A stretch of 45,716 nt of DNA from a bacterium (GCA_021157735.1 JAGGVZ010000057.1:1-45716), one strand, 5' to 3'. Shown: positions 10,488 to 13,959, counted from the stretch's first letter. Translations and numbers: made by a program. Notes: generated by a model not told the origin, from the letters alone.

Positions 10488-10714
10488 AGGCAAAATATAT
10501 TTTAACATAGAAATGGTTTGGAATTTCAAATAGAGGTAGTAGATATTCGTTATAGATAGTGCTCGCCCGGTTTAAGGATACATTTATCTCAAAAATAATT
10601 TCTTTTTTGTTGGCGTTATAAAGTCTGATTGTTTTGCCAAGAAAGCGTTCATTAGTGAATTATCGAAGTCAATCTAGCTTCTAATTACCAGCTCTAACGT
10701 GATATAATCACTTT

Positions 10715-11308
10715 GTGTTTTACGAAAGATCAAATATTAATATTAACGAGAAGCTTATTTGCTATGCTCGTAGACGGTTAGAGAAGTTTTTAGAGAGATC
10801 AGGGTCAGCAATCTCCGCTTTAAGAACCCTGCGAAGAGAAGATGAGAGGATAGTTAGGCTTGATCCAGAGGAAGAAGAATTGTTGAGGAAAGAAGTTATT
10901 AATAACTCAGATGGGATACTAGATCCTGAGAATAGCGGCAGTCTGTGTCAACTGGAAAATGGAGGAATAATGAGACTGCAACACCAAGGAGAAGGGATAA
11001 ATTTTAAAAAATCCTCACAGAAAGATGTAGAGGCGATTAGAGGTTTTTACTTTAGTTTAGAGTTAGATGGATTTCCTTATGAGTGTTTTATTTTTGATGG
11101 AGGAGGATCTCGAAAGTATTATGATGATTTACCCGAGGAGGGAAAGAAAAAATTTTTTGAAGATTTTGCTAATAGAAGACGTAGTTCAGAGATTCCTTTA
11201 GACCCATCTTCCTCAGGGGAACTCTATTTTGTTGCCTTTATTAACGACACCCCTAAGGGGCTAAAGATCGATCGCTTCGGACTCGGTTCCTCTTTAGGTA
11301 ATCAGTAG
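10715..11308 (+). CDS. Hypothetical protein (orphan, acidic, GTG start) in a visibly A+T-rich pocket
   Basis: A 197-aa ORF with no motif I recognise. It is flanked by about 200 and 150 nt of AT-rich non-coding DNA between tRNA genes. Confidence 0.35.
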   Translation: MFYERSNININEKLICYARRRLEKFLERSGSAISALRTLRREDERIVRLDPEEEELLRKEVINNSDGILDPENSGSLCQLENGGIMRLQHQGEGINFKKSSQKDVEAIRGFYFSLELDGFPYECFIFDGGGSRKYYDDLPEEGKKKFFEDFANRRRSSEIPLDPSSSGELYFVAFINDTPKGLKIDRFGLGSSLGNQ

Positions 11309-11459
11309 TTTTCCGTGTGTTTTACTAATGGGCAGGTAGCTTTAAAATTTGGCTTCTGAGTTTTTATAATTATTATCTAGGTTCAAGATGATGCCTAAAT
11401 CGTAGATTAAGCATTTGTACTTCAAATTAGAGCTGTTTTTCGGTTATAATATAGAACAT

Positions 11460-11534
11460 AGGCCCGTCGGTTAACTGGCAAACCACTGGTCTCCAAAACC
11501 AGGACTGGGGGTTCGAGTCCCTCCGGGCCTGCCA
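11460..11534 (+). tRNA. tRNA-Trp(CCA), 3' CCA encoded
   Basis: Acceptor AGGCCCG/CGGGCCT, anticodon arm CTGGT-CTCCAAA-ACCAG, T arm GGGGG-TTCGAGT-CCCTC, and terminal GCCA. A TATAAT box lies at 11445-11450. Confidence 0.9.
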
Positions 11535-11544
11535 CTTCTTCTGG

Positions 11545-11618
11545 CGGGGATTAGCTCAGTTGGCTAGAGCGCAGGCATCGGGAGCCTGAGGCCGCCGGTT
11601 CAAGTCCGGCATCCCCGA
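11545..11618 (+). tRNA. tRNA-Pro(CGG)
   Basis: Acceptor CGGGGAT/ATCCCCG with the bacterial Pro-type C1:G72 pair. Anticodon arm CAGGC-ATCGGGA-GCCTG and T arm GCCGG-TTCAAGT-CCGGC. Confidence 0.9.
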
Positions 11619-11623
11619 CAATC

Positions 11624-11822
11624 GCCTCTGTAGCTCAACGGACAGAGCACTAGTTTTTGCTTCCCCGGAAGCTTCGGGGAAAAGCGAGCGAGTGCCCGTA
11701 GCTCAATGGACAGAGCGCCTGTCTTCGGAACAGGAGGTTGGGGGTTCGACTCCCTCCGGGCACACAAACTTGGGCACGAGGGAGCGAAAACCAGGGTGGG
11801 GGCTCGATTCCCTCCGGAGGCA
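11624..11822 (+). tRNA. Interrupted tRNA-like gene whose anticodon region carries a ~128-nt insert containing tRNA-Arg(UCG). One joining of the halves would give a tRNA-Gln(UUG)-like loop.
   Basis: The 5' part is GCCTCTG-TA-GCTC-AACGGACA-GAGC-A-CTAGT-TTTTG. The 3' part is AA-ACCAG-GGT-GGGGG-CTCGATT-CCCTC-CGGAGGC-A. The acceptor pairs 7/7. Non-canonical features are a 3-nt variable region, C54, and an A.C pair in the anticodon stem. Confidence 0.45.
11692..11764 (+). tRNA. tRNA-Arg(UCG), nested inside the interrupted tRNA-like gene
   Basis: A canonical 73-nt cloverleaf: acceptor GTGCCCG/CGGGCAC, D arm GCTC-AATGGACA-GAGC, anticodon arm CCTGT-CTTCGGA-ACAGG, and T arm GGGGG-TTCGACT-CCCTC. Confidence 0.9.
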
Positions 11823-11847
11823 CAAAGAAGAAGTTAAAAAGTAAAAA

Positions 11848-11931
11848 GGAGGAGTGCCGGAGCGGCCAAACGGACCGGTCTTGAAAACCGGTGGGGTTTT
11901 CCCTACGTGGGTTCGAATCCCACCTCCTCCG
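11848..11931 (+). tRNA. tRNA-Ser(UGA), class II with a long variable arm
   Basis: Acceptor GGAGGAG/CTCCTCC, anticodon arm CCGGT-CTTGAAA-ACCGG, a long variable arm (TGGGGTTTTCCCTAC), and T arm GTGGG-TTCGAAT-CCCAC. Confidence 0.9.
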
Positions 11932-11952
11932 CTTTTAAATTAAAGAAAAACA

Positions 11953-12825
11953 GTGAGAAAAAGAAAAATTCCCCGGTTGACGGTTATTATCACCGCCTTT
12001 AAAGAAGAAAAAACTATTGGCAGGGCTGTTAAGGCGATTGAGAAGCAATTGCGGAAAAGGGACCGTATTCTGGTTGTTGCTCCCGACAAGGAGACTTTAA
12101 AAGCAGCACGGAAGGCATTTTCTCGGGTAGAGATTCTTCAAGATAGGGGAGAAGGGAAAGCAAAGGCGTTGAACTTAGCGGTTAAAAAAGCAAAGGGGAG
12201 GTTGTTGGTTCTTACCGATGGTGATGTTTGGATAGGCAGTAAAGCTCTGCGTGCCTTAGAGAAAAAATTTACTGACCCGCGGGTGGGAATAGTCAGTGGA
12301 CGGCCCAAACCAGTCAACAAGAAAAACACTCTTTTTGGTTTCTGGGCCTGGTTGCTTACCGAAGCAGCTCATCGCTGGCGCCAGCAGCGGGTTAGGGAAG
12401 GGAAAAATATTGACTGTTCTGGGTATCTCTTGACTATTCGCAAAAAACTTTTCCCTCATCTTCCTACCCATCTTCTTGCCGAAGATGCTTTTTTATCGCG
12501 TTGGGTAGTGAAAAGGGGATATCGGAGTGAATATACTCCGGCGGCTTTAGTTTATGTAAAATTTCCGGAAAATTTTTCCGACTGGATAAAACAAAAAGTT
12601 CGTTCTGTTGGAGGGGCAGGGGAAGGGAGAGGAAGTCGGAACTTTTGGCAGGAGATAAAGGATGCGAAGATTCTTTTTTCTTTATGTCGTTCCCCCAAAG
12701 AGTATTTTTATCTTTTTCTTCTTTTCGGAGCCCGGCTTTATCTTTGGTTGCTAATTTTTTGGCGGCTGAAGATAAAAAAACTTCCTTTCGAGAAAATTTG
12801 GGTGCGGGTGGAGAGTACAAAATAA
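11953..12825 (+). CDS. Family 2 glycosyltransferase with a C-terminal membrane segment
   Basis: A GT-A fold N-terminus (VIITAFKEEKTIGRAV), a DGD motif (LTDGDVW), and a hydrophobic C-terminus. The start is GTG. Confidence 0.7.
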   Translation: MRKRKIPRLTVIITAFKEEKTIGRAVKAIEKQLRKRDRILVVAPDKETLKAARKAFSRVEILQDRGEGKAKALNLAVKKAKGRLLVLTDGDVWIGSKALRALEKKFTDPRVGIVSGRPKPVNKKNTLFGFWAWLLTEAAHRWRQQRVREGKNIDCSGYLLTIRKKLFPHLPTHLLAEDAFLSRWVVKRGYRSEYTPAALVYVKFPENFSDWIKQKVRSVGGAGEGRGSRNFWQEIKDAKILFSLCRSPKEYFYLFLLFGARLYLWLLIFWRLKIKKLPFEKIWVRVESTK

Positions 12826-13716: not shown

Positions 13717-13959
13717 TTATCAGCTCCAAAGTCTTTTCCCAAGAAAAACACCCTCCCCAAGCTTGGACTGTGGGGGTTCTCGCCCTCCGGAGTGCTCGCT
13801 TCGCTGTGCGCCCGGAGGGACTCTCACCGCGGTATGATCCCACACTCAGAACCCTTTCTTATCAGCTCAATCTTTTTTCCCAAGAAAAACACCCTCCCCA
13901 AGCTTGGACTGTGGGGGTTCTCGCCCTCCGGGGCTTACTTTGTGCGCCCGGAGGGACTC
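13717..13959. repeat. Tandem ~141-bp duplication downstream (minus sense) of tRNA-Arg(GCG). It includes a 19-bp copy of the tRNA 3' end.
   Basis: An identical 57-nt core occurs at 13734-13790 and 13875-13931. The 19-nt TGTGCGCCCGGAGGGACTC occurs at 13805-13823 and 13941-13959, and the second copy is the real tRNA-Arg 3' end. Confidence 0.85.

Follow-up and report, generated by a model that had tools for sequence, protein, structure and literature searches.

Anatomy of the nested tRNA locus

The locus lies within a Trp-Pro-...-Ser tRNA cluster of the window, the whole 45,716-nucleotide stretch of bacterial DNA that was analyzed (GCA_021157735.1, JAGGVZ010000057.1:1-45716), and consists of a complete tRNA-Arg(UCG) gene placed between the two halves of a second, outer tRNA-like gene. 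Its features are as follows.

11421-11450, + strand: promoter-like site TTCAAA-18-TATAAT, just 5′ of tRNA-Trp, from a consensus scan
11624-11659, + strand: 5′ half of the outer gene, with acceptor strand GCCTCTG, D arm, A26, anticodon-stem strand CTAGT and loop TTTTG
11660-11691, + strand: 5′ linker of the insert, holding the near-palindromic hairpin TTCCCCG-GAAGCTT-CGGGGAA (11661-11681)
11692-11764/5, + strand: inner, intact tRNA-Arg(UCG), called by ARAGORN and by Rfam (RF00005, 71.2 bits), 100% identical in the relatives L003 and L005
11763-11820, + strand: 58-nt segment absent from L003, L005 and L039 in alignments, its placement ambiguous within repeated CACAAA
11765-11787, + strand: 3′ linker of the insert, in which GGGCAC (11772-11777) copies the inner 3′ acceptor strand and GGGAG forms pairs with CTTCC in the 5′ linker
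11788-11822, + strand: 3′ half of the outer gene, with AA, ACCAG, a 3-nt variable region GGT, T arm GGGGG-CTCGATT-CCCTC (C54), acceptor strand CGGAGGC and discriminator A

The nested arrangement, first proposed in a sequence-only reading of the window, is confirmed: ARAGORN and Rfam both call the inner gene, and ARAGORN at default stringency accepts the joined outer halves as a tRNA in all eight (8/8) of the loop registers tried. The arms that had been assigned to the outer halves are present at 11624-11659 and 11788-11822, as are the hairpin, a single-copy near-palindrome unique within the window, and the odd features of the outer gene (C54, an A.C stem pair and the 3-nt variable region). The 7/7 acceptor pairing described there holds in that all seven positions pair, although one of the pairs is a G.U beside six Watson-Crick pairs. 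The insert is ∼128 nt long, of which 73 nt are the inner tRNA, and codes for no protein; its insert-specific inverted repeat is CTTCC/GGGAG alone (5 bp), its junctions show a possible CG...CG target-site duplication, and the longest exact repeat shared by the inner and outer genes at the locus is at most 16 nt. The intron modes of ARAGORN, proposed earlier as a check, left the outer gene uncalled, the single low-stringency call on the minus strand being spurious, and Rfam searches of 11400-12000, at the gathering threshold and at E ≤ 10, returned tRNA matches alone, with no intron, ribozyme or other family. The promoter consensus scan of the region gave 7 sites against 0.4 expected, and the TTCAAA-18-TATAAT site is the likely start of a single Trp-Pro-(outer 5′-Arg-outer 3′)-Ser transcript.

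The neighbors of the locus are ordinary bacterial housekeeping genes (NrdD, Fmt, Def, RelA/SpoT, MreB/C, PBP2, PheS/T, TopA and DprA); the ProRS of the window carries the ProRS-C_1 C-terminal domain, and bacterial L33 is seen on the contigs of relatives only. The best named relatives of the adjacent glycosyltransferase belong to Candidatus Shapirobacteria (∼53% identity). Judged from this match and the housekeeping neighbors together, the window is chromosomal DNA of a Microgenomates-like CPR bacterium.

Between tRNA-Thr (− strand) and tRNA-Trp lies a segment of ∼935 bp (10510-11444) with an orphan 197-aa ORF (10715-11308) that has no Pfam or PHROG match. The segment is absent from the 99.7%-identical strain L006 and from L003 and L005, and is thus an insertion/deletion polymorphism beside the tRNA cluster. 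Most tRNA genes of the window do not encode CCA; tRNA-Trp does. The sequence CA(A/G)A stands straight after the discriminator in many tRNA genes, including all three Arg copies of the window (11764-11769, 11822-11827, and 13935-13942 on the − strand).

Ancestry and decay of the outer gene

Joining five nucleotides of the left half to two of the right gives a tRNA-Gln(ttg) in ARAGORN, and Gln had been put forward as the identity of the outer gene. Comparison with close relatives leads to a different ancestor. L003 and L005, contigs that code for an identical RRM protein and span the tRNA cluster, derive from a relative ∼96% identical to the window (94-98% in the flanks) and share the same cluster with the same 72-nt interval from tRNA-Pro to tRNA-Arg. 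Their outer 5′ half reads GCCTCCG...CTGGT-CTTCG. When that of L003 is combined with the 3′ half of the window, every stem is paired, the loop becomes CUUCGAA, and ARAGORN calls a tRNA-Arg(tcg). Because the two halves form such a fully paired tRNA, the outer gene is, on this reconstruction, ancestrally a second tRNA-Arg(UCG) with the same anticodon as the inner gene. The Gln identity is rejected, the relatives showing UUG to be a recent C35-to-U change in a tRNA-Arg(UCG).

Within the outer 5′ half, the window differs from L003 and L005 by four transitions (11629, 11652, 11655 and 11658), namely C6U (now a G.U pair), G29A (the A.C pair), C32U and C35U (the apparent Gln anticodon), all of which weaken or alter tRNA features. 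C35 has a role in Arg tRNA identity. A fifth difference from L003, also a transition, lies in the hairpin, and all five (5/5) differences in the 324-nt block aligned with L003 fall within the 57 nt made up of the outer 5′ half and the hairpin, for which the chance probability is (57/324)^5, or ∼2e-4. The other 267 nt of the block hold no difference, and the real tRNAs are invariant. Divergence of the 57 nt reaches 8.8%, compared with 3-6% in the flanking genes.

The 3′ half has been lost altogether in close relatives. L003 and L005 lack 58 nt after tRNA-Arg, which is the whole outer 3′ half, and a third haplotype, L039, 99.7% identical upstream and with a window-type 5′ half, lacks the same 58 nt. 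Since this length equals the spacing of the direct repeat D1 (41 nt, 78% identical, formed by the inner and outer 3′ parts), the deletions look as if the inner and outer 3′ repeats had slipped against each other or recombined; a further direct repeat family, D2, is 82% identical at a spacing of 68. Missing from L039 as well are 31 nt (aligned to window 11681-11711) in which the inner tRNA-Arg(UCG) has its D arm and 5′ acceptor strand. This loss would destroy the sole intact copy at the locus, and could represent a real variant, a locus with a second copy elsewhere, or an assembly error.

The outer gene of the window therefore bears the marks of a tRNA pseudogene: its loop is interrupted, U35 replaces C35, an A.C pair stands in the anticodon stem, and the T loop has C54. 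The clustered substitutions, together with deletion of the 3′ half in L003, L005 and L039, show an outer gene that is evidently unconstrained and dispensable in the window lineage. The stem mismatch, C54, the unconstrained divergence and the deletions in sister haplotypes all speak against the earlier suggestion that the outer molecule is a maintained product; quite probably, it is a redundant, decaying pseudogene, the work being done by the inner gene. A synteny search via the downstream glycosyltransferase, in which homologue identity drops from 98% to 59%, found no intermediate state of the locus, and at 57-59% glycosyltransferase identity the tRNA cluster is rearranged (L035-L038).

Recurrence of nested tRNA genes

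A pattern scan for two Arg-type D arms too close together for two complete tRNAs gave 2 matches in species-representative genomes and 24 in metagenome contigs, and a follow-up script looked, in the 170 nt that follow the inner tRNA, for a stretch complementary to the 7-nt acceptor strand upstream. Full pairing (7/7, or six pairs and a G.U) was found in the window, L010 (Woesebacteria), L015, L017, L020, L022, L023, L028, L030, L032, L033 and L034, and L025 matches with one mismatch and one G.U. The search for the same arrangement elsewhere, also suggested in the sequence-only reading, thus yields at least 12 other loci with a tRNA-Arg nested in a tRNA-Arg, on bacterial metagenome contigs and in one deposited Woesebacteria genome, or at least 13 with the window. 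An exact 7-mer complement is expected within 170 nt by chance in ∼1% of cases, and chance is excluded because matched halves recur at at least 12 independent loci. The nested class is recurrent in Microgenomates-like CPR bacteria and involves mostly tRNA-Arg and sometimes tRNA-Pro: tRNA-Pro(CGG) is nested at L020 1130-1310, L033 2575-2750 (+) and L092 4435-4600. The contigs sampled for gene content (L010, L017, L022 and L023) are bacterial (PilM, MreB, HtrA, XerD).

Inner and outer genes share their anticodon (TCG, TCT, CCT or CCG) wherever that of the outer gene can be read; it has mutated from CCT to CTT in L010, and the outer 5′ anticodon arm of L015 is unreadable. The two genes have different acceptor stems, and in many cases their D and anticodon arms are identical. 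The L015 nest is homologous to that of the window, with alignment across the outer 5′ part, the inner gene and the outer 3′ half, and in L028 the inner gene sits in the T loop of the outer one. About half of the outer genes are damaged by script counts of their stems, which were used where an alignment of six motif-family nests proved too ragged at its 3′ end for pair counting; decayed outer genes are found in L015, L032, L033 and L034, and deletion derivatives in L013, L021 and L003. At a syntenic locus (MreB-PEGA-tRNA-M16 peptidase), Arg(CCT) is nested in L010, L020 and L033, and plain in L094, L096 and L097. The outer gene of L010 matches the plain tRNA-Arg(CCT) at this site in L094 and L096, with C35 changed to U and one stem pair lost, as in the window.

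The L033 (+) nest is flanked by halves of two different tRNAs, the 5′ one Pro-like and the 3′ one Arg-like, a mismatch suggesting that interrupted genes have recombined. L011/L012/L019/L026, L018 and L031 contain another type of tRNA-gene remnant: 5′ fragments of tRNA-Arg arranged in arrays, with a promoter-like GGTATAAT/TTGACA sequence and a complete tRNA-Arg behind each fragment, in that order, and no matching 3′ halves. The two-D-arm pattern found nothing in a viral collection, and the 50 places matched there by the GC-helix pattern described below all lie on contigs of 51-74% GC without a tRNA and were rejected as chance matches; neither pattern linked the nests to viruses in that collection.

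Junctions and the conserved closing motif

Inserts in the other loci are closed by an inverted repeat of 7-17 bp. Eight loci share a GC-rich junction sequence (5′ CCCGCCTGCC, 3′ partner GGCGGGCAGG; slightly degenerate in L030), in which the junction motif CCCGCCUGCC is conserved, as is its partner GGCGGGCAGG where the 3′ side survives; that side is gone in L013 and L021. The closing helix formed by CCCGCCUGCC/GGCGGGCAGG comprises 10 bp, with one C.A and one G.U, and lies directly against both junctions, which follow nt 35 in TCT genes and nt 37 in CCT genes. The motif accompanies differing insertion positions (35/36, 37/38 and the T loop), and none of its family shows a target-site duplication. 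Removal of insert and helix restores CUUCUAA or GUCCUAA exactly, and a canonical 7-nt Arg anticodon loop is restored exactly in L017, L020, L022, L023, L025 and L030, as well as in the reconstructed ancestor of the window. In L033 the same helix, without a tRNA, lies in the outer T loop. Homologous outer genes also differ in a compensatory manner, at 7-66 and 29-41 between L023 and L025, and at 3-70 and 6-67 between window/L003 and L015; such paired changes across the insert hint at selection on the outer stems in some lineages.

AT-rich CPR contigs contain a family of GC-rich palindromes (CCTGCCTGCC/GGCAGGCAGG and variants), which in nearly all cases checked coincide with or adjoin tRNA genes (L015 2183-2202, L024 ∼1190, the outer T loop of L033, L097 3775-3800 and L022 2848-2900). 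Some copies follow a 5′ tRNA fragment and are empty, perfect palindromes; others stand on either side of a complete tRNA.

Predicted folding

The complementarity reported between 11650-11664 and 11780-11794 is confirmed at all 15 positions (12 Watson-Crick, 2 G.U and 1 A.C). Four of these pairs (TTCG/CGAA) follow from the ancestral loop, CTTCGAA, which is a palindrome in its own right, and from the presence of CG at both junctions. The 15-bp arm with a tRNA at its tip had been proposed as a possible fold of the primary transcript, and is absent from both the predicted minimum free energy structure and the centroid fold: the predicted structure of the 199 nt in the window keeps the outer acceptor stem and D arm (z-score -2.2), and loses the long arm because the local hairpin competes for TTCC and the GGGCAC copy (11772-11777) for the inner acceptor strand. 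With ViennaRNA, most nested loci are predicted to fold as clean double cloverleaves (n=9), with z-scores of -2.5 to -8.2 relative to mononucleotide shuffles.

Comparison with known systems

The full-text literature searched, which covers part of the journals, contains no report of a tRNA nested in a tRNA or of non-group-I tRNA introns in bacteria or CPR, in line with the remark in the sequence-only reading that no such bacterial arrangement was described. Bacterial tRNA genes are regarded as structurally uniform, with group I and group II introns as the only significant interruptions (2014 review, PMC4033280). The nearest concept is the tRNA-dependent lysogeny of mycobacteriophages, in which phage integration destroys a tRNA gene of the host, which is not rebuilt, and the phage supplies its own (Guerrero-Bustamante & Hatfull 2024, PMC10865867). 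That system involves a whole prophage, a tyrosine integrase and a common core of ∼10 bp, whereas the present insert is ∼128 bp long, free of protein genes, and placed exactly in the anticodon loop between matching halves.

The partial tRNA copies at integrase att sites resemble the nests in that fragments adjoin a complete tRNA of the same type and in that recombinase genes lie near L022, L030, L013 and L023. Unlike the nests, they are one-sided repeats, usually of the 3′ part, at the ends of large islands; here both halves flank ∼130 bp (128 bp in the window) and the loop is not duplicated. A scan of 28 window ORFs (all but about a dozen, which lie after 38.4 kb) gave no match to a transposase or integrase, a splicing endonuclease (EndA) or an RtcB-type ligase. 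Large serine recombinase genes adjoin the nests of L022 (106-1653) and L030 (884-2227, − strand) and are 45% identical to each other; a homologue in L013 (7534-8967, − strand) lies ∼5.5 kb from the nest, and a XerD/integron-integrase-like gene is found near the nest of L023 (1307-2281).

In archaea, intron-containing, multi-intron and split tRNA genes are processed by bulge-helix-bulge splicing (PMC4033280, PMC4090602). The nests share with these the position of the break in or near the anticodon loop (35/36, 36/37 or 37/38), sometimes in the T loop, a helix that joins the junctions, and a canonical loop that excision would restore. They differ in that the hosts are bacteria, the arrangement of 3-nt bulge, 4-bp helix and 3-nt bulge is absent, the insert holds a whole tRNA, and the outer gene of the window is decaying. 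By inspection of the junctions, the flanks in the window form a continuous, bulge-free helix, and in L020 and L022 (site 37/38) nt 32-35 (GUCC) cannot pair with the four intron nucleotides before the last two (GGCA and GGCG, respectively). The archaeal analogy drawn in the sequence-only reading fails on this geometry.

In split tRNAs of the Nanoarchaeum type, the halves lie at separate loci, each with its own promoter and with complementary leader and trailer sequences; here a single strand carries both halves at a distance of 128 nt, downstream of one promoter-like site. Group I introns occur in the anticodon loops of bacterial tRNAs (cyanobacteria, proteobacteria), and are thus alike in location. 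They possess a conserved catalytic core (P3-P9) and are typically longer than 200 nt, whereas the present insert of 128 nt, 73 nt of it tRNA, has no ribozyme core. Intervening sequences of bacterial 23S rRNA, which RNase III removes without religation, are likewise helix-bounded inserts in a structural RNA gene and sporadic among relatives. They are excised at the RNA level and the fragmented rRNA still works, whereas a tRNA cut in its anticodon loop would not, and the present case is known from sequence. In L094 (Blackburnbacteria), a gene for a 23S rRNA intervening-sequence protein (PF05635, 4000-4539) directly follows a plain Arg(CCT)-Pro(CGG) pair, and an ArgRS gene lies ∼2 kb beyond it.

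Origin and fate of the nested genes

The best explanation of the whole, and in our judgment a probable one, is that a resident tRNA-Arg(UCG) was split by a tRNA-bearing insert, that the inner gene works and the redundant outer gene decays, and that the locus belongs to a recurrent CPR class. A clean insertion of ∼128 bp would have interrupted the resident gene after G36, in the anticodon loop, and brought a complete second tRNA-Arg(UCG) with a different acceptor stem and short linkers whose ends pair with each other. Insertion of such a paralogous segment best explains why the outer halves match each other and differ from the acceptor stem of the inner gene. Transcription, probably from the promoter-like site 5′ of tRNA-Trp, would be followed by RNase P cleavage and 3′ processing, releasing Trp, Pro, the inner Arg and Ser and leaving the outer halves as leader and trailer fragments. 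The outer halves presumably cannot give a decoding tRNA because their anticodon loop is broken, and the outer gene would be redundant and decaying because it duplicates the anticodon of the inner gene. Decay would proceed by point changes in the window lineage and by loss through slippage or recombination between the 3′ repeats in sister lineages, and gene conversion between copies ∼100 nt apart could account for identical inner and outer bodies. Several findings count against this explanation: clean junctions that restore canonical loops are also the expected look of an intron, a conserved 10-bp sequence abuts the junctions in eight loci, homologous outer genes show the paired changes described above, and the ORFs scanned in the window include no transposase or integrase near the locus. 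As to mechanism, a tyrosine or serine integrase origin was set aside for the class, the loop not being duplicated at the junctions; the 2-bp CG repeat of the window leaves open a serine-recombinase-like or other 2-bp mechanism there.

Local partial tandem duplications of one tRNA-Arg, with a 68-nt period for the 5′ part, a 58-nt period for the 3′ part and later divergence of the inner acceptor, are an unlikely origin. The direct repeats D2 and D1 exist at these spacings (82% and 78% identical), a 5′ fragment followed by a complete tRNA alone is found in L009, L011, L014, L016, L018, L024 and L031, and the plain gene of L096 combines an acceptor like that of the L010 outer gene (one compensated pair apart) with the 5′ anticodon-arm strand and loop of the L010 inner gene. 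However, the acceptor stems differ at most positions, each remaining complementary, even where the bodies are identical (L028 and L017), a pattern that fits two paralogues with gene conversion better than drift after duplication, and the linkers show no relation to the sequences that flank tRNAs. The CAAA trailer that the copies share was rejected as evidence for duplication, as tRNA-Arg(GCG) has a CAAAG trailer and tRNA-Pro starts with CAA.

A functional interrupted tRNA appears improbable. RNase P and RNase Z would here release the inner tRNA from a double cloverleaf, and the outer halves, held by the helix, would be trimmed and ligated or used as two pieces. The coherent double cloverleaves predicted at most nested loci are in its favor, as are the exact restoration of canonical loops at six other loci and in the window ancestor, the junction motif that abuts junctions at differing positions in eight loci, the compensatory differences between homologous outer genes, and halves that remain recognizable where the flanking DNA cannot be aligned. 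Yet the window copy, with U35, C54 and the A.C pair in its stem, diverges at a rate equal to or above neutral, and the 3′ half is gone from close relatives; neither bulge-helix-bulge geometry nor a group I core is present; nesting is sporadic at syntenic loci, with about half of the outer genes damaged; and an outer gene that shares the inner anticodon wherever it is readable adds nothing. No bacterial enzyme is known to cleave a helix of this kind at its base and to join the ends again. We give equally little credence to a protein-dependent tRNA intron system in some CPR, in which the 10-bp helix CCCGCCUGCC/GGCGGGCAGG would mark cut sites at its base, the inner tRNA would be cargo, the exons would be ligated, and the window would be a degenerate relic.

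That the nested contig is a metagenome assembly artefact joining strain variants across short tRNA repeats is very improbable: the locus has three haplotypes in related samples and the 58-nt 3′ half is seen in the window alone, but assemblers use k-mers much longer than the shared repeats (16 nt at most as exact matches), the 3′ half, a unique sequence, forms perfect pairs with the 5′ half of the relatives, L015 holds a homologous complete nest, and nesting recurs at no fewer than 12 independent loci, among them one from a deposited Woesebacteria genome.

Insertion of a tRNA-bearing segment remains the preferred reading. A decaying pseudogene and a small insert that carries a tRNA and is bounded by inverted repeats, both named as alternatives in the sequence-only reading, are favored by the evidence. 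We conclude that takeover by the inner gene with decay of the outer one is the usual fate of these loci and would describe the state of the window.

The novelty lies in an insert that divides a tRNA gene within the anticodon loop and brings along a tRNA to replace it, with the stages (intact, mutated and half-deleted) all visible across at least 13 loci of little-studied bacteria. These form a natural series for the interruption, replacement and loss of tRNA genes, and bear on the origin of tRNA introns and split tRNAs. Standard tRNA finders report the inner gene only, and the nested repeats promote deletions able to remove tRNA genes. Should any of the outer genes mature, this would represent a new bacterial RNA-processing pathway.
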